Of a stretch of 64,000 nucleotides of DNA, positions 5,232-49,117 are shown piece after piece; the stretch's first letter is position 1; each line of letters begins with the position of its first letter. A program made the translations under genes and the position numbers. The DNA lies in assembly GCF_001677475.2 (NCBI RefSeq), contig NZ_CP015229.1, one strand, 5' to 3'. A model generated the notes under the pieces. The model saw only the letters and a list, made by a program, of their open reading frames with translations. It did not search any database and was not told where the DNA came from. This stretch comes from Escherichia coli. Lineage in GTDB: Bacteria > Pseudomonadota > Gammaproteobacteria > Enterobacterales > Enterobacteriaceae.

Positions 5232-5365
5232 AGTTTGCTCCTGCCATAACGTGAAGAAGCAATGACCTGGTGGTCCGTGACTTCCCTACGCTGGCATTAT
5301 CCAGATCAGGTGATACGGGTATTTCTCAGCCTTCACGCAGAAGGGCACCCCGAGTCGTTTGGTTG
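5232..5365 (-). promoter_or_regulatory. TPP (thiamine pyrophosphate) riboswitch in thiM leader
   Basis: Minus-strand sequence reads ...GGGGTGCCCTTCTGCGTGAAGGCTGAGAAATACCCGTATCACCTGATCTGGATAATGCCAGCGTAGGGAA..., the classical thi-box aptamer, immediately upstream of thiM. Confidence 0.9.
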
Positions 5366-16316: not shown

Positions 16317-16417
16317 ATAAATTCCTAAAGTTGTTTTCTTGCGATTTTGTCTCTCTCTAACCCGCATAAATACTGGTAGCATCTGCATTCAACTGGATAA
16401 AATTACAGGGATGCAGA

Positions 16418-19400
16418 ATGAGACACTTTATCTTTCAGGACGAAAAATCACATAAATTCTGGGCGGTGGAGCAGCAGGGAAACGAGCTGCATATCAACTG
16501 GGGAAAAGTCGGCACCAACGGGCAAAGTCAGGTAAAAAGCTTTGCTGATGCTGCGGCGGCGGAAAAAGCGGAACTGAAGTTGATTGCGGAGAAGATTAAG
16601 AAGGGGTATGTGGATGATGGTTCGCCAGAAACCATCATAAACTCTCCGATATCAAGCACAGTTTCAGTACAAGAGTTAGCAATATCAACAGGAAACTTCA
16701 CAACGACTGAAACGGCACAGCCACAAGCGATGCCCACGTTGGAAACGCCGCCCTGGCTGAAGAACGGTGAGTCAATTGTTATTTTTGCCAATGCTGAACC
16801 CGCGCCGTTTAGCCATCGTCACTTGATTAATGATCCTCTGGACATTGTTGATAAAGATGGCTTCTTCTGGATACAACTAAAAGAGTACCCATATTGGGCA
16901 GCATTTTACCTTGCCTGTCTGCAAAAGTTCGATGTCAGCCAATGCCAGTCAGAATGGCAATTGGCGTTACAGGAAACTATTTCGCGCATCCAGAAATTAC
17001 AGCAAGACGGATCGTTGCTTTCCGACGTCATATTGACACTGACAAGATTAATTATCGGCCGCCCCGGTCGCCCTCATACATGGCTGGATAGCATAGTGCA
17101 ACTGCGAGGCCTTGAGTATGCCACTGAGTTAGTTATCGCTATGCAGCATGTACAAATGACTGACGACGCAAATACCGATCCTACAAAAAATGCCACTTTA
17201 AAACTTCATTACAATAGTCTTTTTAGTGCGCTGAGAAGAGGGGAAATGGCAGACAATTATTATCTACCTGTAGTAAGCCTTAGCCACGATATTTCCGACA
17301 TGCGCTACAAATATGGATTCAGCGACGAAATAGAGTTACGTTTACGAGAACACCTTTCGCACACAGATGAGGAAACCTGGCAACGCTGTGCTAATAAACT
17401 CATAGATGCTCTCCCTTCACTGCCTCCCCGCAAACGCCCATTAATTGCTTTTTTGCTACCAGAAAAACCAGATATTGCCAATCAGATAGCCCTGGAAATT
17501 GCCCCTATGCATGATTACCCAGAGATTGAGTGGCTTTCCCTTGTCACAACTGACCCGCAAGCAACGTGTCTGCTGAAGAATTTCCATCAACTTGAACTCA
17601 CAACGGGATGGGGAGGCGATATGACGAATCGTTGTATTAAAACCCTACTGCGTGAACAAGGTCTTAATGCCCTGTCACGTCTGCAAGAGGGAGTTAACGA
17701 TAGTTATCCTGTCAGACACGCACTTCAGGAAATTAACCATCCTGATGTCGTTACGTTGTTTATCAAAGAGGAATGTGCCATAGGTGTCGAAATTTCGGCT
17801 TCGAAGTACCCAGAATCGGCGCTTTATGCCCTTACTGCAGCTTTGCTTAGTGCTAAAAATCTGAGGTATTCTCGCCTGATGGAACGAATTGTATTAGGTA
17901 ATGCTCAAACCTTGCGTAATACAATGCCCTGGTTGAGTGAGGAACAGAAACAACTTTTATTCAGTTATTTTCCTCAACTTCATGCTAAAGAAGAGATAGC
18001 CAATGCTTGTGAGTTACCCGGTATATTAACTAATCCAATTTGGCTGAAGAAAAAGAATAAATCCGCCACGACGATATTTACATTACCCGTATTGCCTCTG
18101 GAGTCCATTGGCCCCAACCCTCAGCCACAACCCGAAGCAGAAATACCTTCTACTGCTGAAGTCTTACGCCACCTGGGATTCAGTAGTGGAGCATTTGAAG
18201 AGAATAATCCTGATCCAGAAAGATTCGATATTAAATGGGGCGTAACCAAAACGGCCATTCGTCTTCTGGAAACGGAAGATTATGAATCGTTGTTAAATAC
18301 CCGACCAAAGTATGATTATGAAGGTTTTATTACCTTTTATGTATCCATACTCACTCGTCTACCAGCAGAGAAAGCGCTCTCAATCTGGAATGGACTCTCA
18401 CACATGCACCTCGTGGGTGCTGAGAAAGTGGTTGAGCGATTTGGTCTATCTACGGTACCGGGTCTGTTGCGTTATGCCCTGGTAAACCCTAAGGAGGCGG
18501 TTCCCCTGGCAGCACAATTCGGTGCAACTGAAGTTGCCCTGCTGATGGCCCGCGCATTTTGCCAGTTAAAATCCGTACGAGATGTCGCCGAATATTGGCT
18601 CACCACCTACCCGGAACATGCCATTACCGGGCTGCTGCCTATTGCGCTGGGTAAACCAGTTAAAGAACAACAAGATGCCCGGATGACATTACGCTACCTG
18701 GTCAATAATGGTCATCTCGCGTTGCTGAAAAAAATTGCCAGCCGTTACCAACAACCTGAGGTAATAACTGCACTTACCGACTTTTTAGCAGCAGATCCGC
18801 TGGAAAACTATCCACAGAAAATCGCCAAACTCCCTGGGTGGTGTTCACCAGAAGTATGGCACCGCCCGCTTCTGCGCAGTAACGGCAAGGCACTTTCAGA
18901 TTCAGCCATCCTGCACCTGTGCACCATGCTCTCTTTTCCCCGCGAAGCCACCCTTTACCCAGGGATAACACAGGTAATCAAGGCCTGTACTCCGCAATCT
19001 CTTGCCGATTTCGCCTGGGATCTCTTCCTCAGTTGGGAATCTGCCAGTGGCTCCGCTAAAGATAACTGGGCATTTACCGCACTGGGGATTCTGGGCAACG
19101 ATGACACCGCCCGCAAACTCACCCCGCTCATCCGCGCCTGGCCGGGGGAATCTCAGCATAAACGCGCCACTGTCGGGCTGGATATTCTTGCTGCTATCGG
19201 CAGCGATATCGCCCTGATGCAGCTTAACGGCATCGCGCAAAAGCTAAAATTTAAAGCCTTGCAGGATCAGGCAAGAGTTAAAATCGCCCAGATTGCCGAA
19301 AGCCGCCAACTCACCGTCGCAGAAATGGAAGACCGGTTAGCGCCGGATCTCGGACTGGATGATAACGGCTCACTACTGCTGGATTTCGGCCCACGCCAGT

Positions 19401-20254
19401 TCACCGTCAGCTTTGATGAATCCTTAAAACCGTTTGTGCGCGATGCTTCCGGCAGCCGCCTGAAAGACCTGCCCAAACCGAACAAAAGCGATGATGAAAC
19501 ACTGGCTGAGGAAGCGGTAAATCGCTACAAGTTGTTGAAAAAAGATGTCCGCACGGTGGCAGCGCAACAAATTTCGCGTCTGGAAGCCGCCATGTGTCAG
19601 CGTCGCCGCTGGACAGCAGAACAGTTCCGCCTGTTTCTGGTTGAGCATCCCCTGGTACGTCATATCACCCAACGTCTGATGTGGGGCGTATACGATGCAG
19701 ATAATCAGCTTATCACCTGTTTTCGCGTGGCGGAGGATGGCAGTTTTAGCGACGGTCAGGATAACCCGTTAACCCCTGCGCAGGGTAGCATCGGTATCCC
19801 GCATGTGCTGGAAATCCCGGCCCCGCAGGCGGCTGAATTTGCTCAACTGTTTTCTGACTACGAACTCCTGCCACCGTTCCGTCAACTCGATCGCCCCTGG
19901 TCTCAGCTCTCTGATTCAGAAAAAAACAGCAACGATTTGCAGCGCTGGGCTGGTCGCCAGGCACCAAGTGGGCGCGTCGCCGGGCTGATGAATAAAGGCT
20001 GGCAACGGGGCGATGTGCTGGATGGTGGCGGCTATTACTCATTTTATAAAGCTGTGGATGATGGCTACGTCGAACTGAGTGTGACACCCGGCTTCAGTGT
20101 TGGATTACCCGTCACCGAAATCAGCGCCAGCCAAAAAATTGAGCACATTCAGTTGTGCAAACTGACGCCGCACAAATCGGTTTATCCCTTCTCCGTGCTC
20201 GACGACATCACCGCCAGCGAACTCATTAACGATATTGAATCACTGTTTGATTAA
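16418..20254 (+). CDS. molR: giant WGR-domain protein with DUF4132-like C-terminal region, paralog 1
   Basis: 1278-aa ORF; N-terminal ~65 aa with FQDEKSHKFWAVEQ...WGKVG (WGR-type) motif; first of three tandem paralogs; positional equivalent of K-12 molR (symbol assigned by position and recollection). Confidence 0.8.
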   Translation: MRHFIFQDEKSHKFWAVEQQGNELHINWGKVGTNGQSQVKSFADAAAAEKAELKLIAEKIKKGYVDDGSPETIINSPISSTVSVQELAISTGNFTTTETAQPQAMPTLETPPWLKNGESIVIFANAEPAPFSHRHLINDPLDIVDKDGFFWIQLKEYPYWAAFYLACLQKFDVSQCQSEWQLALQETISRIQKLQQDGSLLSDVILTLTRLIIGRPGRPHTWLDSIVQLRGLEYATELVIAMQHVQMTDDANTDPTKNATLKLHYNSLFSALRRGEMADNYYLPVVSLSHDISDMRYKYGFSDEIELRLREHLSHTDEETWQRCANKLIDALPSLPPRKRPLIAFLLPEKPDIANQIALEIAPMHDYPEIEWLSLVTTDPQATCLLKNFHQLELTTGWGGDMTNRCIKTLLREQGLNALSRLQEGVNDSYPVRHALQEINHPDVVTLFIKEECAIGVEISASKYPESALYALTAALLSAKNLRYSRLMERIVLGNAQTLRNTMPWLSEEQKQLLFSYFPQLHAKEEIANACELPGILTNPIWLKKKNKSATTIFTLPVLPLESIGPNPQPQPEAEIPSTAEVLRHLGFSSGAFEENNPDPERFDIKWGVTKTAIRLLETEDYESLLNTRPKYDYEGFITFYVSILTRLPAEKALSIWNGLSHMHLVGAEKVVERFGLSTVPGLLRYALVNPKEAVPLAAQFGATEVALLMARAFCQLKSVRDVAEYWLTTYPEHAITGLLPIALGKPVKEQQDARMTLRYLVNNGHLALLKKIASRYQQPEVITALTDFLAADPLENYPQKIAKLPGWCSPEVWHRPLLRSNGKALSDSAILHLCTMLSFPREATLYPGITQVIKACTPQSLADFAWDLFLSWESASGSAKDNWAFTALGILGNDDTARKLTPLIRAWPGESQHKRATVGLDILAAIGSDIALMQLNGIAQKLKFKALQDQARVKIAQIAESRQLTVAEMEDRLAPDLGLDDNGSLLLDFGPRQFTVSFDESLKPFVRDASGSRLKDLPKPNKSDDETLAEEAVNRYKLLKKDVRTVAAQQISRLEAAMCQRRRWTAEQFRLFLVEHPLVRHITQRLMWGVYDADNQLITCFRVAEDGSFSDGQDNPLTPAQGSIGIPHVLEIPAPQAAEFAQLFSDYELLPPFRQLDRPWSQLSDSEKNSNDLQRWAGRQAPSGRVAGLMNKGWQRGDVLDGGGYYSFYKAVDDGYVELSVTPGFSVGLPVTEISASQKIEHIQLCKLTPHKSVYPFSVLDDITASELINDIESLFD

Positions 20255-20266
20255 AAGGATTTAGCA

Positions 20267-23200
20267 ATGAAAACCTATATTTATCAGGACGAAAAATCAC
20301 ATAAATTCTGGGCGGTGGAGCAGCAAGACAACGAGCTGCATATTAGCTGGGGTAAAGTCGGTACTAACGGGCAAAGTCAGGTAAAAAGCTTTGCTGATGC
20401 TGCGGCGGCGGAAAAAGCGGAACTGAAGTTGATTGCGGAGAAAACAAAAAAGGGCTACGTAGAAGAAGTATCCGTGATAACACCGACATCTGTCCCCGTC
20501 CAGGTTATCGAATGCCCCGAAATAGCCCCTTTGCCACAAGACAAACCAGTATTTGTTGGAGACAACCTCCCCTGGCTGGCAGACGACGCCCAAATCATTT
20601 TACCGACAGAGGTTGCGCCAACCACACTAAGTCATCGACGCTGGCCTGGCGATCCTGTGCCACAGGAGAATGAATTAACTCTGCTACGCTCCGTCGCCGC
20701 GAATACTCACCGACGTTTTAAAAAGGTGATCACCTTCGATTACAGCACCTGTTCACTGGACTGGCAGCAGGCGATAACACAAGCAGTGGGCCTTATCGAC
20801 TCGCCGATTAGCACCACGCTACCACCGATGGTTCTGGCGGTACTGGTTGCGCTGGAACAAGGCTTCAATCGTAACGATCACGAAGAGTTAATGGATCAAA
20901 TTGTCCAGGAAGGTGGTCTGGAATATGCCACTGAGGTTGTCATTGCACTACAATTCATCCGCTTCGACTGGGATTATGATGCCCATCTTATTACGTTCAC
21001 CCCGGATGACAGGCAGCCTGGCTATCTGTTGCGCTTTGCCTCGGTTGAAATGCGCCTGCGCAAGCATTTCTCACTTGCAAATGACGATGTATGGCAGCGC
21101 TGCGCCGACAAACTGATTGCCGCTCTCGGAAACATGCCCGCCTGGCACCAGCCGCTGGTTGCACTATTGTTGCCGGAAAAACCAGAAGTAGCTCATGAGA
21201 TTGCCAGACATTTTTGCGGGCAAAAAGGGTTATATGCGCTGGAATGGCTAAAACTGACGGTCACCGATGCTCAGGTATTAGCAGACCTGGAAAAATACTA
21301 TCCAGGACAGCCTGGGCAGGTATTTGATGATTACTATGGCGGTAACATCTGGTGTGCGACAGCACTCCAGGAGCAAGGAGTCACTGCGCTGGCCCGTTTT
21401 GCCCATTACGCTACTGGTGACACATGTGGTGAAGTGTTGATGCATATCAACCACCCGCAGGCACTTACACTACTTATCCATGCAAGCGAGCAAGGAAAGC
21501 GTTGCCACGATCGCATGACAAAGGCTTTCGTTCGCTTCCCACACGCAGCGCTGGCGGCATTAGCAGAACTTCTGGCACAAAAAGATGAAAAGCGCTGGCG
21601 CATGATGCTAATGACGATGCTTATCTCGCAACCGGCACTAGCAGAACAGGTCACTCCCTGGCTCTCAACCCCCGCAGTTGCAGTGCTGAAATCATGCCAG
21701 CAACAACTGACACAGCCCTCAAACCATGCCAGCGCCGATCTACTGCCAGCCATATTAGTCTCACCGCCCTGGCTTTCGAAAAAGAAAAAATCTGTAATGC
21801 CGGTATTGGATTTAACGCCATTACCGCTGGAGTCATGCTGCACATTGACCGAGACGGCAGAAAAAGAGATTCATGCAAGGCATCGCTGGCACGCACATCA
21901 AATAGACGTCGGCCAAAAAGAGGATATTCAGAACTACCTGACACGTCTGGGTTTCAATCGCTGGAATAATGGCCAGTATATGAAAGCGTCTGATGCTGTT
22001 GTAGAACTCTGGCAGAGGGGAGATTATTCTGCGCTAATCAGCGAATTTAAAACCTTCTGGCACTCCTATCAACGGGAATGGCAGCTTTACATGTTAGCCG
22101 CCCTGCCTATCGAAAAAACAGCGCAGGCGTGGAATGTCCTCAGTAAAGAGCCACACGTCGGTGTCGAGTTTGTCATGACGCACCTGCAACTCGCTGGGTT
22201 ACAGGGTTTTATTCACTCCTTTTCACGCTATCCACAAGAAGCTCTGCCTGTAGCACAATATTTTGCGGCTATCGAATTAGCGCCACTGATCGCCCGCGCC
22301 TTCAACAAACTCAAAACCCTACGACAAGACGCCCGCACCTGGCTGCTGAAATACCCGGAACACGCCATTACCGGCCTGCTACCTTCGGCGCTCGGCAAAG
22401 CCGGTGAAGCACAGGATAACGCCCGCGCTGCCTTGCGTATGCTTACCGAAAACGGTCATCAGCCATTACTGCAAGAAATCGCCCGGCGTTATAACCAGCC
22501 GGAAGTAACAGATGCGGTGAACGCTCTGCTTGCGCTCGATCCCTTAGATAATCACCCGACAAAAATCCCCACTCTTCCGGCCTTTTATCAGCCATCGCTC
22601 TGGACGCGCCCGGTATTAAAAGCAAATGCCCAATCACTGCCAGATAGCGCCCTCCTACGCCTCGGCGAAATGCTCCGCTTCCCTCAGGAAGAGGCACTGT
22701 ATCCGGGATTATTGCAGGTGAAAGCCGCCTGTACCGCCGACTCACTGGCTGAATTTGCCTGGGATCTGTTTACCGCCTGGCAGACCGCTGGCGCACCGTC
22801 GAAAGAAAGCTGGGCGTTCACTGCGTTAGGTGTTCTCGGCAACGATGACACCGCCCGCAAACTGACGCCTTTGATTCGCGCCTGGCCTGGTGAATCCCAG
22901 CATAAACGCGCCACCGTCGGGCTGGATATTCTCGCTGCTATCGGTAGTGATATCGCCCTGATGCAGCTTAACGGGATCGCCCAGAAACTGAAATTCAAAG
23001 CATTACAGGAGCGGGCAAAAGAAAAAATTGCCGACATTGCCGAGAGTCGCGAACTGACGGTAGCGGAGCTTGAAGATCGGTTAGCACCGGATCTCGGTCT
23101 GGATGATAACGGTTCGCTGCTGCTGGATTTTGGCCCACGGCAGTTCGCCGTCAGCTTTGATGAAACCTTAAAACCGTTTGTGCGCGATGTTTCCGGCAGC

Positions 23201-24028
23201 CGCCTGAAAGACTTACCTAAACCCAATAAAAGCGATGATGAATCACAGGCGAACGATGCTGTTAACCGCTACAAATTGCTGAAAAAAGATGCGCGTACCG
23301 TCGCCGCCCAGCAGGTAGCAAGGCTGGAATCCGCCATGTGCCTGCGCCGCCGCTGGTCGCCGGAAAACTTTCAGCTCTTCCTGGTTGAGCATCCGCTGGT
23401 TCGTCACTTAACCCGCCGTCTGATTTGGGGCGTTTATAGCGCCGAAAACGAGCTACTGGCTTGCTTTCGCGTGGCGGAAGATAACAGCTACAGCACCACA
23501 GACGATGATCTTTTCACCCTGCCGGAAGGCGATATCTCTGTTGGTATTCCTCACGTTCTGGAAATATCACCCACGGATGCCGCTGCCTTTGGTCAGCTTT
23601 TTGCCGACTACGAACTGTTACCGCCGTTCCGCCAGCTTGACCGCAACAGTTACGCGCTGACAGAAGCCGAACGCAACGCCAGTGAACTGTCCCGCTGGGC
23701 CGGCAGAAAATGTCCGAGCGGTCGAGTAATGGGGCTGGCGAATAAAGGCTGGATGCGTGGTGAACCGCAGGACGGTGGCTGGATCAGCTGGATGATCAAA
23801 CCTCTGGGCCGCTGGTCGTTAATTATGGAAATCGATGAAGGTTTTGCGGTCGGCATGTCGCCAGCCGAACTGAGTGCCGAGCAACTCTTAAGCAAGGTGT
23901 GGCTATGGAAAGGCAAAGCAGAAAACTATGGCTGGAGGAGTTATTCAACACAGGAAGCGCAGTTCTCCGTACTCGATGACATCACCGCCAGCGAGCTGAT
24001 TAGCGATATTGAATCTCTGTTTGAATAA
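20267..24028 (+). CDS. giant WGR-domain / DUF4132-like protein, paralog 2
   Basis: 1253-aa ORF 12 bp after paralog 1 (AAGGA SD); N-terminal WGR region and C-terminal ~450 aa highly similar to paralog 1, central region divergent. Confidence 0.85.
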   Translation: MKTYIYQDEKSHKFWAVEQQDNELHISWGKVGTNGQSQVKSFADAAAAEKAELKLIAEKTKKGYVEEVSVITPTSVPVQVIECPEIAPLPQDKPVFVGDNLPWLADDAQIILPTEVAPTTLSHRRWPGDPVPQENELTLLRSVAANTHRRFKKVITFDYSTCSLDWQQAITQAVGLIDSPISTTLPPMVLAVLVALEQGFNRNDHEELMDQIVQEGGLEYATEVVIALQFIRFDWDYDAHLITFTPDDRQPGYLLRFASVEMRLRKHFSLANDDVWQRCADKLIAALGNMPAWHQPLVALLLPEKPEVAHEIARHFCGQKGLYALEWLKLTVTDAQVLADLEKYYPGQPGQVFDDYYGGNIWCATALQEQGVTALARFAHYATGDTCGEVLMHINHPQALTLLIHASEQGKRCHDRMTKAFVRFPHAALAALAELLAQKDEKRWRMMLMTMLISQPALAEQVTPWLSTPAVAVLKSCQQQLTQPSNHASADLLPAILVSPPWLSKKKKSVMPVLDLTPLPLESCCTLTETAEKEIHARHRWHAHQIDVGQKEDIQNYLTRLGFNRWNNGQYMKASDAVVELWQRGDYSALISEFKTFWHSYQREWQLYMLAALPIEKTAQAWNVLSKEPHVGVEFVMTHLQLAGLQGFIHSFSRYPQEALPVAQYFAAIELAPLIARAFNKLKTLRQDARTWLLKYPEHAITGLLPSALGKAGEAQDNARAALRMLTENGHQPLLQEIARRYNQPEVTDAVNALLALDPLDNHPTKIPTLPAFYQPSLWTRPVLKANAQSLPDSALLRLGEMLRFPQEEALYPGLLQVKAACTADSLAEFAWDLFTAWQTAGAPSKESWAFTALGVLGNDDTARKLTPLIRAWPGESQHKRATVGLDILAAIGSDIALMQLNGIAQKLKFKALQERAKEKIADIAESRELTVAELEDRLAPDLGLDDNGSLLLDFGPRQFAVSFDETLKPFVRDVSGSRLKDLPKPNKSDDESQANDAVNRYKLLKKDARTVAAQQVARLESAMCLRRRWSPENFQLFLVEHPLVRHLTRRLIWGVYSAENELLACFRVAEDNSYSTTDDDLFTLPEGDISVGIPHVLEISPTDAAAFGQLFADYELLPPFRQLDRNSYALTEAERNASELSRWAGRKCPSGRVMGLANKGWMRGEPQDGGWISWMIKPLGRWSLIMEIDEGFAVGMSPAELSAEQLLSKVWLWKGKAENYGWRSYSTQEAQFSVLDDITASELISDIESLFE

Positions 24029-24037
24029 GGAAATAAC

Positions 24038-27000
24038 ATGAACAAGGAATTACCGTGGCTGGCGGATAACGCACAACTGGAACTGAAATATAAAAAAGGC
24101 AAAACGCCGCTCAGCCATCGCAGTTGGCCGGGCGAACCGGTGCCTGTTATTACTGAAAGCCTCATCCAGACACTGGGTGATGAATTGCTACAAAAAGCTG
24201 AGAAGAAAAAAAACATTATCTGGCGTTATGAAAATTTTTCACTGGAGTAGCAGTCCGCCATCACGGAAGCCATCAACTTGATTGGCGAACACAAACCCTC
24301 AATTCCGGCACGGACAATGGCGGCGCTAGTCTGTATCGCGCAAAAGGACAGCCAACAGTTGCTCGACGAAATCGTCCAACAAGAGGGACTGGAATATGCG
24401 ACTGAGGTGGTGATTGCACGCCAGTTTATTACACGATGTTATGAGAGTGATCCTCTGCTAGTGACATTGCAGTATCAGAACGAGGACTATGGCTATGGTT
24501 ATCGCTCAGAAACCTATAACGAATTCGATCTGCGACTGCGTAAGCATCTCTCTCTGGCAGAGGAAAGCTGCTGGCAGCGTTGCGCCGACAAACTCATTGC
24601 CGCACTGCCAGGAATACCCAAAATTCGCCGTCCTTTTATTGCGCTGGTCCTCCCGGAAAAACCAGAAATAGCCAATGAGTTGGTAGGTCTTGAATGCCCG
24701 CGGACTCATTTTCATTCTAAGGAGTGGTTAAAAGCTGTTGCTACTGCCCCCCGGGCGGTGAGAAAACTCGAACACTACTGGAGCCAGGATATATTTAGCG
24801 ATCGCGAAGCCAGCTACATGTCGCATGAAAACCGCTTCGGGTACGCGGCCTGCGCCGCCCTTTTGCGTGAACAAGGACTGGCAGCCGTTCCGCGCCTGGC
24901 AATGTATGCCCATAGAGAGGATTGCGGAAGCCTGCTGGTACAAATTAACCATCCGCAGGTCATCCGCACCTTGCTGTTAGTTGCTGATAAAAACAAACCC
25001 AGCCTGCAACGTGTGGCTAAATACAGTAAAAATTTCCCCCACGCGACACTCGCCGCACTGGCAGAACTGCTGGCGCTAAAAGAACCACCTGCGCGTCCTG
25101 GTTATCCAATCATCGAAGACAAAAAGCTGCCTGCACAGCAAAAAGCACGTGATGAATACTGGCGTACGCTGTTACAAACGCTGATGGCATCGCAGCCACA
25201 ACTGGCAGAAGAGGTGATGCCGTGGTTAAGTACTCAAGCCCGGTCAGTGCTGAATAGTTATTTATCGGCACCGCCTAAAACGGTTATTGATAGCACCGAT
25301 AACAGCCAAATGCCTGAAATCCTCGTTTCACCACCGTGGCGTAGTAAGAAAAAAATGACAGTTCCACGTCTTGATTTGGCACCGTTCGAATTAACGCCGC
25401 AAGTTTACTGGAAACCAGGCGAACGAGAGAGGCTTGCCGCCACTGAGTCTGCCCGTTATTTCAGTACGGAATCTCTTGCGGAACGCATGGAACATAAAAG
25501 TGGACGAGTTGTACTACAGGAGCTGGGTTTTGGAGATGATGTATGGCTGTTTTTGAATTATATACTCCCCGGAAAACTGGATGCTGCACGCAATTCACTC
25601 ATTGTTCAGTGGCATTACTACCCAGGGCGGGTTGAAGAGATCATGAATGGCTGGAGCTCCCCGGAAGCTCAATTAGCAGAACAGGCGCTTCGCAGCGGTC
25701 ACGTAGAAGTGTTAATTAACATATGGGAAAATGACAGCTACTCACGCTATCGTCGGGAAAAGAGTATCTGGAACCTGTATTTATTGGCGCAGTTGCCGCG
25801 TGAGATGGCTTTGACTTTCTGGCTACGTATCAATGAGAAAAAGCATCTGTCTGCGGGTGAGGACTATTTTCTCAGTATCTTCGGATTGGATGCTCTACTA
25901 GGTCTGCTGTTGGCTTTTTCACATCGTCCAAAAGAAACATTTCCGTTAATTTTAAATTTCGGCGCAACCGAACTAGCCCTGCCCGTTGCCCGCGTCTGGC
26001 GACGTTTCGCGGCGCAGCGTGATCTGGCCCGCCAGTGGATTTTACAATGGCCGGAACATACGGCTACTGCACTTATCCCTCTTGTCTTCACCAAATCCAG
26101 CGATAATAGCGAAGCTGCATTACTTGCCCTGCGTTTACTTTACGAACAGGGACATGGCGAGTTACTGCAAACCGTGGCAAACCGCTGGCAGCGTACAGAT
26201 GTATGGCCTGCCCTGGAGCAATTACTTAAACAGAGTCCAATAGAGATTTACCCGACACGCATTCCAAAAGCCCCTGATTTCTGGCAGCCGGCAATGTGGT
26301 CCAGGCCGCGCCTTATCACGAATAATCAACCTGTTACTGATGACGCTCTGGAAATTATCGGCGAAATGCTGCGCTTTACCCAGGGCGGACGTTTTTATAG
26401 CGGACTGGAACAGCTGAAAACGTTTTGCCAGCCGCAAACGCTGGCAGCCTTTGCCTGGGATCTTTTCACCGCGTGGCAACAAGCTGGTGCTCCCGCAAAA
26501 GACAACTGGGCATTTCTGGCGTTAAGTCTCTTTGGCGACGAAAGCACGGCACGGGATCTGACGACACAGATCCTTGCCTGGCCACAGGAAGGCAAATCTG
26601 CCCGTGCTGTCAGTGGTCTGAATATACTTACTCAGATGAATAATGATATGGCACTGATACAGTTGCATCATATATCGCAACGGGCGAAATCCCGCCCCTT
26701 ACGTGATAACGCGGCGGAATTTCTTCAGGTGGTCGCAGAAAATCGCGGGCTAAGCCAGGAACAGTTAGCGGACAGATTAGTCCCAACACTGGGTCTTGAT
26801 GATCCGCAGGCGTTGATTTTTGATTTTGGTCCACGGCAATTTACCGTTCGCTTCGATGAAAACCTTAACCCGGTTATCTTTGATCAGCAAAACGTTCGCC
26901 AGAAAAGCGTTCCCCGGTTGCGCGCCGATGACGATCAACTGAAAGCACCCGAGGCACTGGCCCGACTAAAAGGGCTAAAAAAAGATGCCACTCAGGTGAG

Positions 27001-27670
27001 CAAAAACCTGCTCCCGCGTCTTGAAACTGCCCTGCGCACCACCCGACGCTGGTCGCTGGCAGATTTTCATTCTCTGTTTGTTAATCATCCCTTTACCCGC
27101 CTGGTTACTCGGCGATTGATATGGGGTGTTTATCCGGCAAATGAACCGCGTCGTTTACTCAACGCCTTTCGTGTGGCCGCTGAGGGGGAGTTCTGCAATG
27201 CGCAAGATGAGCCAATTGACCTGCCTGCCGATGCTCTGATTGGCATTGCCCACCCGTTAGAAATGGCAGCAGAAATGCGCAGTGAATTTGCACAGCTTTT
27301 TGCCGATTACGAAATTATGCCGCCTTTTCGCCAGTTGGCACGGCGCACAGTGCTGCTCACGCCTGACGAGTCAGCCAGTAATAGTTTGAATCGCTGGGAA
27401 GGTAAATCTGCTACCGTTGGGCAACTTATGGGAATGCGATACAAAGGCTGGGAGTCAGGCTATGAGAACGCATTTGTCTATGACCTGGGCGAGTACCGGC
27501 TGGTCCTTAAGTTTTCATCCGGTTTTAACCACTACAATGTTGATAGCAAAGCGCTAATGAGCTTCCGTTCTCTTCATGTATACCGTGAGAATAAATCTGT
27601 CACTTTTGCCGAACTTGATGTGTTTGATTTGAGTGAAGCGTTAAGCGCACCCGACGTTATTTTCCATTAA
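24038..27670 (+). pseudogene. yehI: third paralog (YehI-like, lacks WGR N-terminus) interrupted by in-frame amber codon
   Basis: ORFs 24038-24250 and 24278-27670 are in the same frame, separated only by TAG at 24248-24250, which aligns with a Trp codon in paralog 2; read-through length would be 1210 aa. Confidence 0.75.
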
Positions 27671-27730: not shown

Positions 27731-28051
27731 ATGATCGTGCAAAAAGAGCTGGTCACTATTTACGATTATGAGGCCCCTGTACCTGAAGAGCCGTTTTCCT
27801 TCAGGCTTGAGATCCATAAACGCTCTGAATTATTTACAGGTTCCGTCTATCGACTGGAACGATTCCGGCTACGTCCAACATTTCATCAACGTGATCGAGA
27901 AGATGTCGACCCGCTAATAAATGATGCGTTGATTTATATAAGAGATGAGTTTATTGATGAGCGAAAATTACGAGGTGAATCACCTGAAACTGTAATAGCA
28001 ATTTTTAATCGCGAACTACAAAATATATTCAACCAACAAATAGAAAAATAG
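27731..28051 (+). CDS. yehK: small acidic protein of unknown function
   Basis: 106-aa ORF 60 bp downstream of paralog array; recognised as YehK. Confidence 0.8.
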   Translation: MIVQKELVTIYDYEAPVPEEPFSFRLEIHKRSELFTGSVYRLERFRLRPTFHQRDREDVDPLINDALIYIRDEFIDERKLRGESPETVIAIFNRELQNIFNQQIEK

Positions 28052-28104: not shown

Positions 28105-28194
28105 TTACTTCAACAAATCAATCAACCGTAACAGAGCCACTAATAGCTCCAGTACAGCAATGAGCACGGTTAACTTTTGTGTCAGCGTGTCCAT
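28105..28194 (-). CDS. zorO: 29-aa hydrophobic peptide, type I toxin-like (ZorO-like)
   Basis: ATG 28194 preceded by AAGGAG SD; translation MDTLTQKLTVLIAVLELLVALLRLIDLLK; ~175-nt leader from a consensus promoter; leader contains a 19-nt site complementary to the divergent sRNA. Symbol is from recollection of the ZorO-OrzO architecture. Confidence 0.6.
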   Translation of the reverse strand: MDTLTQKLTVLIAVLELLVALLRLIDLLK

Positions 28195-28375: not shown

Positions 28376-28426
28376 ATTATAAATCTCATTATCTTAATTG
28401 CAACGGGGTCCACCGATGGTTATAAT
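28376..28426. promoter_or_regulatory. divergent sigma70 promoters sharing a palindromic -35 hexamer
   Basis: Plus strand: TTGCAA (28398-28403), 17-bp spacer, TATAAT (28421-28426). Minus strand: same TTGCAA, 16-bp spacer, TATAAT (complement of 28376-28381). Confidence 0.7.
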
Positions 28427-28432
28427 TCGTTC

Positions 28433-28515
28433 GTTGGAACACGATGTTGCACAGGCTGCGGTGTTGGGCCTGAAAATAGTAAATAAAAGAACCTGCCTCA
28501 CCAGCAGGTTTTTTT
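28433..28515 (+). ncRNA. orzO: small RNA, candidate type I antitoxin (OrzO-like)
   Basis: Consensus promoter directly upstream; 5' end UUGGAACACGAUGUUGCAC is complementary (18 of 19) to toxin leader site at 28267-28285; ends at strong terminator CCTGC-N7-GCAGG plus T7 (28492-28515). Confidence 0.55.
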
Positions 28516-28626: not shown

Positions 28627-29715
28627 ATGTCACCGCAGAATAATCATCTGCAGCGTCCGCCTGCCGCTGTGTTATACGCCGATGAACTGGCAAAATTAAA
28701 ACAAAATGATAACGCACCTTGCCCGCCAGGTTGGCAGTTAAGTTTGCCTGCGGCCCGCGCTTTTATCCTTGGCGACGAAGCGCAAAATATTAGCCGTAAA
28801 GTCGTGATCAGTCCCTCCGCTGTCGAACGCATGTTAGTCACTCTCGCTACCGGGCGCGGTTTGATGTTGGTGGGGGAACCTGGCACCGCAAAATCTCTCC
28901 TGTCTGAATTACTGGCGACCGCTATTAGCGGCGATGCCGGGTTAACCATCCAGGGCGGCGCATCTACCACCGAAGATCAAATCAAGTACGGCTGGAACTA
29001 CGCCCTGCTTATCAACCATGGTCCGTCAACGGAAGCGCTGGTCCCTGCCCCGCTTTACCAGGGAATGCGCGACGGCAAAATTGTCCGTTTTGAAGAGATA
29101 ACGCGTACACCGCTGGAAGTACAAGACTGTCTGTTAGGTATGCTTTCTGACAGGGTAATGACGGTGCCGGAACTCACTGGTGAAGCCAGTCAGCTCTATG
29201 CGCGGGAAGGCTTTAATATTATTGCCACTGCCAATACCCGCGATCGCGGCGTCAATGAAATGAGTGCTGCGCTAAAGCGTCGCTTCGATTTTGAAACTGT
29301 CTTTCCGATTATGGATTTCGCCCAGGAGCTGGAACTGGTCGCCAGTGCTTCCGCGCGTTTGCTGGCCCATAGCGGTATTCCGCATAAAGTGCCTGACGCG
29401 GTACTGGAATTACTGGTGCGCACGTTCCGCGATCTGCGTGCCAACGGCGAAAAGAAAACGTCAATGGATACACTGACAGCGATTATGTCCACCGCTGAAG
29501 CCGTTAACGTGGCCCATGCTGTGGGTGTCCGCGCCTGGTTTTTAGCGAATCGCGCGGGGGAGCCTGCCGACCTGGTGGATTGTATTGCCGGAACCATCGT
29601 CAAAGATAACGAAGAAGATCGCGCGCGTCTGCGCCGTTACTTCGAACAGCGCGTCGCCACACATAAAGAAGCTCACTGGCAGGCTTATTATCAAGCTCGC
29701 CACCGCCTGCCGTGA
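28627..29715 (+). CDS. yehL: MoxR-like AAA+ ATPase (AAA_5 type)
   Basis: 362-aa product from ATG 28627; Walker A LVGEPGTAKS, Walker B-like VRFEEIT; ORF N-terminal extension from 28561 rejected. Confidence 0.85.
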   Translation: MSPQNNHLQRPPAAVLYADELAKLKQNDNAPCPPGWQLSLPAARAFILGDEAQNISRKVVISPSAVERMLVTLATGRGLMLVGEPGTAKSLLSELLATAISGDAGLTIQGGASTTEDQIKYGWNYALLINHGPSTEALVPAPLYQGMRDGKIVRFEEITRTPLEVQDCLLGMLSDRVMTVPELTGEASQLYAREGFNIIATANTRDRGVNEMSAALKRRFDFETVFPIMDFAQELELVASASARLLAHSGIPHKVPDAVLELLVRTFRDLRANGEKKTSMDTLTAIMSTAEAVNVAHAVGVRAWFLANRAGEPADLVDCIAGTIVKDNEEDRARLRRYFEQRVATHKEAHWQAYYQARHRLP

Positions 29716-29725
29716 GGAAAGATGC

Positions 29726-32005
29726 ATGAGCGAGCCGTTAATTGTCGGCATCCGGCATCATAGTCCGGCCTGCGCCCGGCTGGTGAAATCGTTAATCGAA
29801 AGCCAGCGGCCACGATACGTGTTGATTGAAGGCCCGGCTGATTTTAATGACCGGGTAGACGAACTGTTGTTAGCCCACCAGCTTCCGGTAGCTATTTACA
29901 GTTATTGCCAGTATCAGGACGGTGCGGCCCCCGGGTGTGGTGCCTGGACGCCATTTGCTGAATTTTCGCCAGAGTGGCAGGCGCTACAAGCCGCACGTCG
30001 TATTCAGGCACAAACTTACTTCATCGATTTGCCTTGCTGGGCACAGAGTGAAGAAGAGGACGATTCGCCTGATACGCAAGAGGAAAGCCAGACCTTGCTG
30101 CTGCGTGCCACCCGCATGGATAACAGCGATACCCTGTGGGATCACTTGTTCGAAGATGAAAGCCAGCAAACTGCATTACCCTCTGCGCTGGTGCACTATT
30201 TTGCCCAACTGCGGGGCGACTCCCCCGGAGATGCTCTCAATCGTCAGCGTGAAGCCTTTATGGCCCGCTGGATTTCATGGGCGATGCAGCAAAATAATGG
30301 CGACGTGTTAGTTGTCTGCGGAGGCTGGCACGCTCCGGCACTGGCAAAAATGTGGCGCGAATGCCCGCAGGAAATTAACACGCCAGAATTGCCCTCGCTG
30401 GCAGATGCCGTTACAGGTTGTTATCTCACACCCTACAGTGAAAAGCGCCTTGATGTGCTGGCAGGATACCTTTCAGGAATGCCTGCCCCGGTCTGGCAAA
30501 ACTGGTGCTGGCGGTGGGGCTTGCAGCAGGCAGGTGAACAACTGCTGAAAACGGTTCTTACCCATTTGCGCCAGCACCACTTGCCTGCTTCAACAGCGGA
30601 TATGGCTGCCGCTCATCTACATGCGATGGCACTGGCACAGTTGCGTGGTCATACACTACCGTTACGCACTGACTGGCTGGATGCCATAGCAGGCTCGCTG
30701 ATTAAAGAAGCCCTGAATGCGCCGTTGCCGTGGAGCTATCGCGGCGTTATTCATCCCGATACCGATCCGATTCTGCTAACGTTGATAGACACATTAGCGG
30801 GTGACGGATTCGGTAAACTTGCCCCTTCTACGCCACAACCGCCTCTGCCAAAAGATGTCACCTGCGAACTGGAACGTACAGGAATCTCTTTTCCGGCGGA
30901 GCTTACCTTAAATCGCTTTACCCCCGATGGACTGGCGCAAAGTCAGGTGTTACATCGGCTGGCAATACTGGAGATCCCAGGGATTGTGCGCCAGCAGGGA
31001 AGTACACTGACACTTGCAGGCAACGGTGAAGAACACTGGAAATTAACCCGCCCGCTTAGCCAGCATGCGGCATTGATTGAGGCCGCATGCTTTGGTGCCA
31101 CACTCCAGGAAGCCGCACGCCATAAATTAGAAGCCGATATGCTGGACGCGGGTGGAATCGGCAGTATCACCACATGTCTTAGCCAGGCGGCGTTAGCGGG
31201 TCTGGCGTCCTTCAGTCAACAATTACTGGAGCAACTCACATTATTAATCGCCCAGGAAAATCAATTTGCCGAAATGGGCCAGGCGCTGGAAGTGCTATAT
31301 GCCTTATGGCGGCTGGATGAAATTAGCGGTATGCAAGGCGCGCAGATATTACAAACGACGTTATGCGCGGCTATCGATCGCACGCTGTGGCTGTGTGAAT
31401 CTAACGGCAGACCAGATGAAAAGGAGTTTCACGCTCACCTGCATAGCTGGCAGGCGCTTTGCCATATCCTGCGCGATCTACATAGCGGCGTTAATTTACC
31501 CGGCGTTTCTCTTTCTGCGGCGGTAGCCTTACTGGAGCGCCGCAGTCAGGCGATTCATGCCCCGGCGCTGGATCGCGGCGCGGCTCTTGGCGCACTGATG
31601 CGTCTGGAACATCCCAACGCCAGTGCCGAAGCGGCGCTGACGATGCTGGCGCAGTTATCCCCGACACAGTCCGGCGAGGCGCTGCACGGTTTGCTGGCAT
31701 TAGCCCGTCATCAACTGGCCTGTCAGCCGGCATTTATCGCCGGTTTCAGTAGTCATTTAAATCAACGGAGTGACGACGATTTTATTAACGCCCTGCCCGA
31801 TTTACGCGCGGCGATGGCCTGGCTACCACCACGAGAACGCGGGACGCTGGCGCATCAGGTGCTTGAGCATTACCAGCTCGCACAGCTTCCCGTTTCAGCG
31901 CTGCAAATGCCGTTGCATTGTCCACCGCAAGCCATTGCACATCATCAACAACTCGAACAGCAGGCACTGGCATCGCTGCAACACTGGGGAGTTTTCCATG
32001 TCTGA
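29726..32005 (+). CDS. yehM: large protein of unknown function
   Basis: 759-aa product from ATG 29726 (GAGGAAAG SD; 10 bp after yehL stop); no recognisable catalytic motif. Confidence 0.8.
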   Translation: MSEPLIVGIRHHSPACARLVKSLIESQRPRYVLIEGPADFNDRVDELLLAHQLPVAIYSYCQYQDGAAPGCGAWTPFAEFSPEWQALQAARRIQAQTYFIDLPCWAQSEEEDDSPDTQEESQTLLLRATRMDNSDTLWDHLFEDESQQTALPSALVHYFAQLRGDSPGDALNRQREAFMARWISWAMQQNNGDVLVVCGGWHAPALAKMWRECPQEINTPELPSLADAVTGCYLTPYSEKRLDVLAGYLSGMPAPVWQNWCWRWGLQQAGEQLLKTVLTHLRQHHLPASTADMAAAHLHAMALAQLRGHTLPLRTDWLDAIAGSLIKEALNAPLPWSYRGVIHPDTDPILLTLIDTLAGDGFGKLAPSTPQPPLPKDVTCELERTGISFPAELTLNRFTPDGLAQSQVLHRLAILEIPGIVRQQGSTLTLAGNGEEHWKLTRPLSQHAALIEAACFGATLQEAARHKLEADMLDAGGIGSITTCLSQAALAGLASFSQQLLEQLTLLIAQENQFAEMGQALEVLYALWRLDEISGMQGAQILQTTLCAAIDRTLWLCESNGRPDEKEFHAHLHSWQALCHILRDLHSGVNLPGVSLSAAVALLERRSQAIHAPALDRGAALGALMRLEHPNASAEAALTMLAQLSPTQSGEALHGLLALARHQLACQPAFIAGFSSHLNQRSDDDFINALPDLRAAMAWLPPRERGTLAHQVLEHYQLAQLPVSALQMPLHCPPQAIAHHQQLEQQALASLQHWGVFHV

Positions 32006-33134
32006 ACTGAACGATCTTCTGACCACCCGTGAGCTACAACGCTGGCGATTAATTCTTGGAGAAGCGGCAGAAACGACGCTTTGTGGGCTGGATGACAACG
32101 CCCGGCAGATAGACCACGCGCTGGAGTGGCTGTATGGGCGCGATCCTGAACGGCTCCAGCGTGGTGAACGTTCCGGTGGATTAGGTAGCTCAAATCTCAC
32201 CACCCCTGAGTGGATCAACAGTATTCACACGCTGTTTCCGCAACAGGTGATTGAGCGGCTGGAAAGCGATGCCGTACTGCGCTACGGCATTGAAGATGTG
32301 GTGACGAATCTCGACGTGCTGGAACGTATGCAGCCTTCTGAAAGCCTGCTACGCGCCGTTTTGCACACCAAACATCTGATGAATCCCGAAGTACTGGCTG
32401 CCGCCCGCCGGATAGTGCGCCAGGTTGTTGAAGAAATTATGGCTCGACTGGCAAAGGAAGTTCGTCAGGCTTTTTCTGGTGTCCGCGATCGCCGTCGCCG
32501 CTCATTTATTCCACTGGCGCGAAACTTTGATTTCAAAAGTACTCTGCGCGCCAACCTGCAACACTGGCACCCGCAACACGGCAAGTTGTATATCGAATCC
32601 CCCCGCTTTAACAGCCGCATTAAACGCCAAAGCGAACAATGGCAACTGGTCTTACTGGTTGATCAAAGCGGCTCGATGGTTGACTCGGTGATCCACTCAG
32701 CGGTGATGGCGGCCTGTTTGTGGCAGTTACCCGGCATTCGTACCCATCTGGTGGCGTTTGACACAAGCGTCGTTGATCTCACGGCAGACGTTGCCGATCC
32801 GGTAGAACTATTAATGAAAGTACAACTGGGCGGCGGAACCAATATCGCCAGTGCCGTGGAGTATGGTCGGCAACTTATTGAACAACCAGCAAAAAGCGTC
32901 ATTATCCTCGTGAGCGATTTTTATGAAGGAGGTTCATCATCATTGCTGACGCATCAGGTGAAAAAATGTGTCCAGAGCGGCATCAAAGTGCTGGGACTGG
33001 CGGCGCTCGATAGCACCGCAACACCTTGCTATGACCGCGATATGGCCCAGGCACTGGTTAATGTCGGTGCACAAATAGCCGCCATGACGCCGGGCGAACT
33101 GGCATCATGGCTGGCGGAGAATCTTCAGTCATGA
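31998..33134 (+). CDS. yehP: von Willebrand factor A (VWA) domain protein with MIDAS motif
   Basis: 378-aa product; start ATG overlaps yehM stop (ATGTCTGA); MIDAS-like LVLLVDQSGSM. Confidence 0.85.
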   Translation: MSELNDLLTTRELQRWRLILGEAAETTLCGLDDNARQIDHALEWLYGRDPERLQRGERSGGLGSSNLTTPEWINSIHTLFPQQVIERLESDAVLRYGIEDVVTNLDVLERMQPSESLLRAVLHTKHLMNPEVLAAARRIVRQVVEEIMARLAKEVRQAFSGVRDRRRRSFIPLARNFDFKSTLRANLQHWHPQHGKLYIESPRFNSRIKRQSEQWQLVLLVDQSGSMVDSVIHSAVMAACLWQLPGIRTHLVAFDTSVVDLTADVADPVELLMKVQLGGGTNIASAVEYGRQLIEQPAKSVIILVSDFYEGGSSSLLTHQVKKCVQSGIKVLGLAALDSTATPCYDRDMAQALVNVGAQIAAMTPGELASWLAENLQS

Positions 33135-35131
33135 ATTCACTACGTCCGGAATTATTAGAACTGACACCGCAGGCGCTGACGGCGTTAAGCAATGCCGGTT
33201 TTGTGAAGCGCAGTCTTAAGGAACTGGAAAATGGCAACGTCCCGGAAATCAGCCATGAGAACGGTGTTTTACTCGCCACGTTCAGTGACGGTGTCCGTAC
33301 CCAACTGGCGAACGGTCAGGCACTGAAAGAGGCTCAGTGCAACTGCGGGGCCAGCGGCATGTGCCGTCATCGCGTGATGCTGGTGTTAAGTTATCAACGA
33401 CTTTGCGCTACCGCCCAGCCCACGGAAAAAGAAGAAGAGTGGGATCCAGCAATCTGGCTGGGAGAGCTGGCAACCCTACCCGATGTCACCCGTAAACGTG
33501 CACAAGCTCTTGTCGCTAAAGGCATCACCATTGAGTTGTTCTGTGCGCCGGGCGAAATTCCCTCTGCCCGCTTACCGATGAGTGATGTGCGTTTTTATTC
33601 CCGCAGCAGCATTCGTTTCGCACGCTGTGATTGTATTGAAGGCACGCTGTGTGAACATGTAGCACTGGCTGTGCAGGCCTTCGTCGAGGCCAAAACTCAG
33701 CAAGCGGAATTTAACCATTTGATCTGGCAGATGCGCAGCGAACACGCCGCATCATCTGACGATCCATTTGCCAGCGAAGAAGGCAAAACGTGTCGTCAAT
33801 ATGTTCAGCAATTAAGTCAGGCATTATGGCTGGGCGGCATCAGCCAGCCGCTTATTCATTACGAGGCTGCTTTCAGCCGCGCGCAGCAAGCGGCGGAACG
33901 CTGCAACTGGCGCTGGGTAAGTGAATCACTACGACAGCTACGGGCAAGCGTTGATGCCTTCCACGCCCGCGCCAGCCACTACCATGCCGGAGAATGCTTA
34001 CGTCAGCTTGCGGCATTAAACAGTCGATTAAATTGCGCACAAGAGATGGCCCGGCGCGACAGTGTTGGTGAAGTTCCTCCCATGCCGTGGCGCACGGTCG
34101 TTGGCGCTGGCATTGCCGGAGAAGCAAAGCTTGATCATCTGCGGCTGGTGTCTTTAGGTATGCGTTGCTGGCAGGATATTGAGCAGTATGGTTTACGCAT
34201 CTGGTTTACCGATCCCGACACCGGCAGTATTTTGCATCTTTCGCGTAGTTGGCCGAGAAGCGAACAGGAAAACTCACCGGCAACGACGCGTCGGCTGTTT
34301 AGTTTTCAGGCTGGCGCACTGGCTGGTGGGCAAATTGTTTCACAAGCAGCAAAACGCAGTGCCGATGGCGAGCTGCTGTTAGCTACCCGCAACCGCTTAA
34401 GCAGCGTTGTGCCGCTGTCGCCAGACGCCTGGCAAATGTTGAGCGCGCCATTGCGCCAGCCGGGCATTGTGGCTTTGCGGGAATATTTACGCCAGCGTCC
34501 CCCCGCCTGCATACGGCCTCTTAATCAGGTGGATAACTTATTTATTCTGCCAGTCGCTGAGTGTATTTCACTCGGTTGGGATAGCAGCCGCCAGACGCTG
34601 GATGCGCAGGTAATCAGCGGCGAAGGTGAAGATAATCTGCTGACGTTATCACTGCCAGCCTCAGCCAGTACGCCTTATGCCGTTGAACGTATGGCGGCGC
34701 TTTTGCAACAAACAGAGGACCCCGTGTGTCTGGTTTCTGGCTTTGTCAGTTTTGTAGAGGGGCAATTGACACTGGAACCACGGGTGATGATGACAAAAAC
34801 CCGCGCCTGGGCGCTGGACGCAGAAACTGCGCCTGTGGCACCGCTACCTTCTGCCAGCGTTTTGCCTGTGCCGTCTACCGCTCATCAGTTGCTGATGCGC
34901 TGCCAGGCGTTACTTATTCAACTGCTCCATAACGGTTGGCGCTATCAGGAACAGAGTGCTATTGGTCAGGCAGAGTTGCTGGCGAATGACCTCACCGCGG
35001 TGGGTTTTTATCGGCTGGCACATGTGTTGGCACAATTTCGTAATACAGAAAGCGAGGCATGGGTAGAAGCAATGAATAACGGTGTTTTACTTTGCGAACA
35101 ATTATTCCCCATGCTTCAGCAACAAGGATGA
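33131..35131 (+). CDS. yehQ: protein with two SWIM-type zinc-finger motifs
   Basis: Start ATG overlaps yehP stop (ATGA); two CxCx5CxH motifs (CNCGASGMCRH from 33338; CDCIEGTLCEH). Confidence 0.8.
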   Translation: MNSLRPELLELTPQALTALSNAGFVKRSLKELENGNVPEISHENGVLLATFSDGVRTQLANGQALKEAQCNCGASGMCRHRVMLVLSYQRLCATAQPTEKEEEWDPAIWLGELATLPDVTRKRAQALVAKGITIELFCAPGEIPSARLPMSDVRFYSRSSIRFARCDCIEGTLCEHVALAVQAFVEAKTQQAEFNHLIWQMRSEHAASSDDPFASEEGKTCRQYVQQLSQALWLGGISQPLIHYEAAFSRAQQAAERCNWRWVSESLRQLRASVDAFHARASHYHAGECLRQLAALNSRLNCAQEMARRDSVGEVPPMPWRTVVGAGIAGEAKLDHLRLVSLGMRCWQDIEQYGLRIWFTDPDTGSILHLSRSWPRSEQENSPATTRRLFSFQAGALAGGQIVSQAAKRSADGELLLATRNRLSSVVPLSPDAWQMLSAPLRQPGIVALREYLRQRPPACIRPLNQVDNLFILPVAECISLGWDSSRQTLDAQVISGEGEDNLLTLSLPASASTPYAVERMAALLQQTEDPVCLVSGFVSFVEGQLTLEPRVMMTKTRAWALDAETAPVAPLPSASVLPVPSTAHQLLMRCQALLIQLLHNGWRYQEQSAIGQAELLANDLTAVGFYRLAHVLAQFRNTESEAWVEAMNNGVLLCEQLFPMLQQQG

Positions 35132-48944: not shown

Positions 48945-49117
48945 GATGAGCATTCAGATAGTGGTTCACGCGCACGGGTTGCGCACCGCCGGAGTAAGGA
49001 TTTACTGAGGCTAGCGACGCCATCATAACGAGCAAAAAGTGCGATCGTCAAAGGAGAATCGTGAGGAAATGCTGCATTGCTGACATTTACGCCAGCAATG
49101 CAACACAAAAGAACTTT

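Follow-up and report, generated by a model that had tools for sequence, protein, structure and literature searches.

Among the tandem WGR-DUF4132 genes that follow metG in Escherichia coli, molR (yehF/G/H) has been described as 'disrupted in K12' (PMC3950696) and appears, with a known SOS box, in a list of LexA-regulated genes (PMC6590174). The same region carries a resistance transposon in sublineage L1a of ST131 (PMC9334617), and the DdrO/IrrE response of Deinococcus includes the induction of WGR and DUF4132 proteins (PMC8533742). Here we describe a 64,000-nucleotide stretch of an E. coli chromosome (contig NZ_CP015229.1; hereafter the window) in which the third gene of such an array, yehI, is interrupted by an in-frame amber at codon 71 (W71*). 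The analysis leads us to conclude that yehI W71* is very probably an ordinary nonsense pseudogene allele: fixed in its lineage, fairly young and causing loss of function. Early amber alleles of lacI provide a second point of comparison, since translational restarts in them were reportedly shown experimentally by Files, Weber and Miller in 1974 and by Steege in 1977. The yehI allele resembles them in that the amber falls early within a long open reading frame (ORF), with in-frame ATG and TTG codons tens of nucleotides downstream. However, whereas the lacI restarts are experimental, those in yehI are only possible, with weak Shine-Dalgarno (SD) pairing and a lost N-terminus that holds family-invariant residues.

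The yehI ortholog spans 24038-27670 (+ strand, as are all genes of the array) and comprises 1210 codons. Its native start is the ATG at 24038, which has a good SD sequence (anti-SD pairing -6.2 kcal/mol), and in frame with this start the premature TAG occupies 24248-24250, so that the translation reads ...ENFSLE*QSAITEAINLIGEH.... The stop is derived from TGG via a G-to-A transition at 24249. It leaves a 5' fragment (24038-24250) of 70 sense codons plus the amber, and a remainder (24251-27670) of 1139 sense codons that runs uninterrupted up to the natural stop at 27668-27670. The original prediction of an in-frame amber splitting the third paralog is thus confirmed with the frame set by ATG 24038; it was also right that the frame beyond the stop is open. 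The remainder holds the DUF4132 domain, which reconstructed YehI matches over residues 954-1138 (PF13569; 162.9 bits against a gathering cut-off of 27). Gene callers render the remainder either as a 1117-amino-acid (aa) ORF from ATG 24317 or as a 1130-aa ORF from TTG 24278, and GenBank holds the 70-aa fragment (ANO89892.1) and the 1117-aa remainder (ANO89893.1) as separate 'hypothetical proteins' of an E. coli chromosome. Identity to annotated yehI genes is 91.7-98.2%, and the gene order metG, WGR-DUF4132 paralog(s), yehI, yehK, yehLMPQ agrees with annotated E. coli records, indicating an orthologous position.

Tryptophan is widely found at the interrupted position. Three E. coli yehI orthologs have TGG at codon 71, one base (G) away from the TAG of the window, in keeping with the earlier claim of one TGG-to-TAG change, and Trp is also present at this codon in the orthologs of E. 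whittamii and Escherichia sp. MOD1-EC7003. As had been stated, paralog 2 (20267-24028) carries Trp where it aligns with the amber, reading ...CSLDWQQAITQAVGLIDSP... (that is, CSLDWQQAITQAV); paralog 1 reads EWQ and so has Trp as well. When 20 distant homologs were aligned with the three window paralogs, the codon-71 column was W in 12 of the 23 sequences and L, Y, F, D or Q in the others.

The amber allele is genuine and fixed in the sampled members of its lineage. In independent NCBI, ENA and SRA/Logan assemblies, 26 contigs encode precisely the 70-aa fragment and 21 the 1117-aa remainder. All 24 contigs that encode the exact paralog 2 of the window have a split yehI, and an exact look-up of the W71 version of the window's YehI protein found none on record. 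The TAG was read directly in 13 loci (L004-L013 and L030-L032). The ten carrier loci L004-L013 come from three isolate assemblies at NCBI, an ENA metagenome and assemblies of six SRA runs. Over 14-20 kb their identity to the window is 98.2-99.99%, and yehI is the same as the window's in eight of them (L004-L006, L008-L012) as well as in L030 and L031. Differences between carriers and the window are grouped in tracts in yehL, yehM and yehP, a distribution typical of recombination. The yehI of L007, which also has the TAG, shows 69 differences; they fall into three clusters (codons 275-338, 684-767 and 909-1124) that recombination brought in from other alleles, and are uninformative for selection. 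Nothing was found in favour of an error of sequencing or assembly, which would have to have placed the same TAG and the same 70-aa fragment in at least 13 loci, drawn from NCBI isolates, from an ENA metagenome and from several unrelated SRA runs. The chance of this is vanishingly small, and since the exact look-up of the fragment returned 26 contigs overall, from many independent samples, we rejected it.

Compared with 5426 RefSeq complete E. coli genomes, the window reaches an identity of at most 97.2% in metG and at most 97.4% over 24 kb. The source is a divergent lineage unrepresented among these genomes; its proteins are labelled E. coli in GenBank. The synonymous divergence (dS) of metG between the window and E. 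coli strains is 0.15-0.22, about the distance between phylogroups in E. coli. A search of the GTDB representatives found no separate species match, only E. whittamii and two Escherichia sp. at 86-88%, which places the lineage inside E. coli sensu lato.

Codon 71 was then compared across the same RefSeq genomes, a check that had been proposed with the original prediction. The query was a 55-mer centred on base 24249, such that each 28-base megablast word includes that base. Of the 5426 genomes, 4812 matched the TGG form and a single one, strain BS-01, the TAG form. A species-wide or conserved TAG was therefore rejected, the TGG form serving as the control; fixation of the stop across the species, which had been named beforehand as evidence against a recent lesion, is not what these counts show. 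In BS-01 (NZ_CP172816.1, ACIA67_RS10535; locus L039, 8817-12449) yehI is called a pseudogene with 'internal stop' at codon 71 by the Prokaryotic Genome Annotation Pipeline (PGAP). BS-01 shares with the window the identical W71* TGG-to-TAG change, the same position between metG-DUF4132 and yehK-yehLMPQ, and an intact downstream frame. In contrast to the window, it belongs to an ordinary E. coli lineage, and its locus has two paralogs where the window has three. The two yehI sequences differ at 217 of 3633 nt, with differing sites as close as 17 nt on either side of the stop, and BS-01's own 70-aa fragment is itself recorded on 26 contigs. Because the haplotypes differ to this extent, W71* arose at least twice, independently, on different haplotypes. 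As there are 142 possible transition-type nonsense changes in yehI, and as other nonsense alleles of the gene are known, this recurrence is a mild coincidence and a special mechanism is not called for.

The age of the lesion was approached through substitution patterns. Intact yehI is clearly under purifying selection: the ratio of non-synonymous to synonymous divergence (dN/dS) between intact alleles is 0.15-0.25, which indicates weaker constraint than in metG (0.01-0.04) or yehL (0.02-0.09) and constraint similar to or somewhat weaker than that in yehM (0.12-0.17). The notion that yehI is hyperdiverse was rejected as a property specific to this gene, the adjoining metG having a dS of 0.09-0.22 between the same strains. 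Substitutions in yehI that are private to the window number 7 non-synonymous (the stop not counted) and 7 synonymous, a ratio as in the private changes of intact alleles. Since yehI is identical in eight fetched carriers (L004-L006, L008-L012), as well as in L030 and L031, dN/dS among TAG carriers has no power. The only point changes within the TAG lineage are P739L, M753T and P1109L, three non-synonymous and no synonymous, and the codons concerned do not vary among 11 other alleles, which include those of two other Escherichia species, one being E. whittamii. This 3:0 pattern points to relaxed constraint but, at three events, is no proof of it.

Several of these data weigh against reading the gene as a pseudogene. 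The three lineage changes are too few for significance, a long phase of neutral decay is not demonstrated (the private 7:7 ratio equals that of intact alleles), and the downstream 1139 codons contain no second disabling lesion in any carrier. Moreover, translation may resume at a low level from TTG81, ATG94 or TTG108, or a near-cognate tRNA may read through the UAG. We would call the lesion young, although several recombination events and substitutions in its clade postdate it. The earlier description of it as recent thus holds in a relative sense, supported both by the lack of a second lesion and by the private ratio of 7:7.

According to the proposed sequence of events, the ancestor of one divergent E. 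coli lineage acquired a G-to-A transition at 24249, by which Trp71 (TGG) became an amber (TAG). Termination at codon 71 through release factor 1 (RF1) would then release a fragment of 70 residues that lacks the DUF4132 domain. The 3.4 kb beyond would be translated at most weakly, by leaky readthrough or unspecialised restarts, and would probably come under Rho-dependent polarity. Given termination at this codon and weak translation beyond it, YehI function would be lost or severely reduced, and the gene would be an early-stage pseudogene. The two upstream WGR-DUF4132 paralogs and the downstream yehK-yehLMPQ genes are still intact. Of the outcomes offered in the original prediction, a loss-of-function allele or a strain polymorphism is the one supported, at the level of the lineage. 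The data are compatible with a neutral as well as with a selected loss.

Two alternatives would preserve YehI activity. In one, translation restarts past the stop and a truncated protein, having lost 80-107 residues, keeps a useful function. Three in-frame codons could serve, 28, 67 and 109 nt past the stop: TTG at 24278-24280 (codon 81, Leu81 in frame), the first potential restart, with weak SD pairing of -3.5 kcal/mol; ATG at 24317-24319 (codon 94), the first in-frame ATG past the stop and the start of the 1117-aa ORF, with very weak pairing of -2.1 kcal/mol; and TTG at 24359-24361 (codon 108), whose AAGGA-like pairing of -5.3 kcal/mol is the best among the downstream in-frame candidates. 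The downstream ORF is unbroken in all carriers, the 1117/1130-aa ORF is also retained in several other lineages whose early lesions (A7, A9, Q77*, E84*) are independent, and its product is annotated as a protein by gene callers and PGAP. Nevertheless, we consider a functional restart unlikely. Pairing at all candidates falls below that of the native start, and the TAG lineage has neither gained nor improved any of the three sites: strain WP4-S18, whose allele is TGG, has the same surrounding sequence, so no restart adaptation followed the origin of the stop. The intactness of the ORF is uninformative, the carriers being too closely related, and the few later changes are all non-synonymous and at invariant codons. 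Any restart product would also be deprived of P6, W7 and R28, all of which lie before the stop and reach 90% conservation or more across an alignment of 44 family members, and of helix 69-81. The latter contains W71 in the AlphaFold2 (AF2) model of residues 1-466 (predicted local distance difference test, pLDDT, 83.7; predicted template modelling score, pTM, 0.80), in which residues 11-150 are an ordered part of an N-terminal helical solenoid; the product would thus lack nearly invariant residues together with part of a confidently modelled domain. The earlier suggestion of reinitiation at Met 24278 is not supported, on similar grounds: the codon is TTG, its SD pairing is -3.5 against -6.2 kcal/mol at the native start, and the product would be without the three conserved residues.

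In the other alternative, the amber is read through, either by a suppressor tRNA encoded in the lineage or by leakiness of UAG-C, to give full-length YehI at a reduced and possibly regulated level. The base following the stop is indeed C, UAG-C is a comparatively weak termination context in E. coli, and the frame past the stop is open. Yet natural isolates rarely carry amber suppressors, the 64-kb window contains no tRNA gene, and the stop is not conserved, TGG being present in 4812 genomes. Nor did the region past the stop reveal any unusual RNA structure, the fold of 24230-24340 being no better than that of shuffled sequences (z = -0.96), and Rfam found no recoding element at the stop region. 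Readthrough of this kind is very improbable, and the proposal of expression through amber suppression was not borne out, with no tRNA in the window and no special downstream structure. Restart or suppression is therefore possible only at a low, unspecialised level, and we retain the view of yehI W71* as a nonsense pseudogene allele.

The allele exemplifies a wider tendency: genes of this cluster have been disrupted independently in many lineages and by lesions of many types. The gene itself is common: yehI was found in 5330 of the 5426 RefSeq genomes, with at least 80% of its length in 5222. Several other lesions affect its 5' end. The A8 homopolymer at codons 57-59 (24206-24213), intact in the window, is A7 or A9 elsewhere, giving independent frameshifts. 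A7 occurs on at least three distinct yehI 5' haplotypes (loci among L014-L020, L036 and L038), one of them in 9 RefSeq complete genomes, and A9 is known both from Escherichia sp. E2593 and from a 64-aa fragment recorded on 85 contigs; the tract is missing from the E. whittamii and MOD1-EC7003 orthologs. Its appearance as A7 or A9 on several haplotypes makes the tract a recurrent frameshift hotspot. In this respect yehI resembles homopolymer contingency-type alleles, the tract lying 35 nt upstream of the amber. However, the lesion in the window is a base substitution, which does not easily revert, and a run of A8 is short compared with genuine phase-variation tracts. Another amber, Q77* (CAG to TAG), produces a 76-aa fragment found on 287 contigs and in 11 of 5426 RefSeq genomes, counting 100%-identity matches only. 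Further early lesions comprise E84* and frameshifts near codons 73 and 100, and larger ones comprise insertions of the insertion sequences (IS) IS600 and IS1 and a yehI-yehM deletion. A word-indexed search for YehI homologs returned almost only truncated Escherichia fragments. In addition, public assemblies contain chimeric proteins (P0037, P0039, P0046, P0051, P0066, P0079) in which the YehI N-terminus is joined to YehL (AAA_5), YehM (DUF5682) or YehP (VWA), and their sequences indicate several independent internal deletions of the locus.

Inactivation extends to the other genes of the array. WGR paralogs are broken, by point lesions or IS elements, in O157:H7 (both paralogs), O141:H4, GN04592 and O121. 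Together with molR of K-12, these cases match yehI of the window in belonging to the same tandem family and locus and in leaving the neighbouring genes intact. The distribution of the damage is reversed, however: in K-12, O157:H7, O141:H4, GN04592 and O121 WGR paralogs are broken and yehI is intact, whereas the window has two intact WGR paralogs and a broken yehI. The number of WGR-DUF4132 paralogs before yehI also varies, being 1 or 2 (window compared with L001, L002, L024-L029 and L039). In WP4-S18 the single paralog is similar to paralog 1 at its 5' end and to paralog 2 over its 3' two-thirds, which suggests a deletion by recombination between tandem paralogs. The original prediction had taken the lesion to fit a costly or conflict-related function. 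Repeated natural inactivation does fit dispensability or cost, but the 'conflict' part is speculative: PADLOC returned no match, and the literature instead puts molR in the LexA regulon.

In the window the array begins past the metG terminator with paralog 1 (16418-20254; 1278 aa), followed after 12 nt by paralog 2 (1253 aa), which ends 9 nt before the yehI start; both carry WGR and DUF4132 and are intact. The three paralogs are only 35-50% identical to one another and are therefore old duplicates rather than a recently diversifying array. The 'diversifying array' of the original prediction is accordingly hard to reconcile with these identities, and tandem arrays of three to four genes are kept in distant bacteria. 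Distant homologs (~25-33% identity; ~1250 aa each) are arranged in this way at L033 (3049-20617) and L035 (812-14681). At L033, a metagenome locus, the array is followed by AAA_5, DUF5682, VWA and SWIM genes and is adjoined by lexA. Conservation of the whole architecture thus reaches far beyond Escherichia. The corresponding genes of the window, yehL (AAA_5/MoxR-like), yehM (DUF5682), yehP (VWA) and yehQ (SWIM), occupy 28627-35131 (+), are all open and represent the conserved partner module of the DUF4132 array. Between them and yehI lies yehK (27731-28051, +; 106 aa), which is intact, begins 60 nt past yehI and may suffer polar effects of the premature stop.

The function of this system was addressed through its regulation, structure and relatives. 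A LexA-box-like sequence, CTGGATAAAATTACAG, is located at 16393-16408 (+), 10 nt upstream of the paralog 1 start; it has one mismatch to CTGT-N8-ACAG, a pattern that by itself is not enriched in the window. The site is consistent with the listing of molR in the LexA regulon. Searches of PADLOC-DB 2.0 with 7 locus proteins gave zero matches at E <= 0.01, and a sequence search of the PDB detected no relative of YehI or YehM. YehL resembles AAA+ proteins of the midasin/MoxR/McrB type. The AF2 model of the DUF4132 region (C-terminal residues 840-1210) has a pLDDT of 94.7; fold searches with this model and with that of residues 1-466 found generic helical-repeat matches only, none of them significant for DUF4132. 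Literature searches on yehI, DUF4132 and DUF5682 returned mostly noise and no functional study of YehI. Taken together, the molR listing, the candidate box at 16393-16408, the lexA gene adjoining the L033 array and the induction of the Deinococcus proteins would support a DNA-damage-linked role at least as well as a 'conflict' role.

Other features of the window were recorded alongside these. The spacer that separates yehK from yehL contains a zorO-orzO type I toxin-antitoxin module (28105-28194, -, and 28440-28515, +), with a 29-aa toxin ORF (MDTLTQKLTVLIAVLELLVALLRLIDLLK), an OrzO RNA matching Rfam RF02083 at 101 bits, and divergent promoter-like sites near 28400. In L007 the yehK-yehL spacer has ~600 extra bases, possibly a second zorO-orzO copy. 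Elsewhere in the window, Rfam identified a thiamine pyrophosphate (TPP) riboswitch (5266-5362, -; 71 bits) and a Peptidase-S11 RNA motif (48949-49029, -; 73 bits).

The concentration of lesions at A8, W71, Q77 and E84 raises a further idea, namely that the 5' end of yehI is a recurrent on/off point of an SOS-regulated system made up of WGR/DUF4132 proteins and a MoxR-AAA/VWA/SWIM module, or else that the N-truncated product is functional. We regard this as distinctly unlikely. Were it true, lineages would have been selected to switch off different paralogs, in a complementary loss of sensor or adaptor subunits, and the on/off pattern would be that expected of a costly DNA-damage or conflict surveillance machine.

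Taken as an ordinary pseudogene allele, yehI W71* matters little alone. For annotators, it means that the 70-aa and 1117/1130-aa 'hypothetical proteins' are two pieces of one yehI pseudogene. More interesting than the allele is the surrounding metG-proximal system, in which SOS-linked WGR/DUF4132 proteins and YehLMPQ are conserved to distant bacteria, and natural knock-outs such as yehI W71* are ready material for learning the role of this system.

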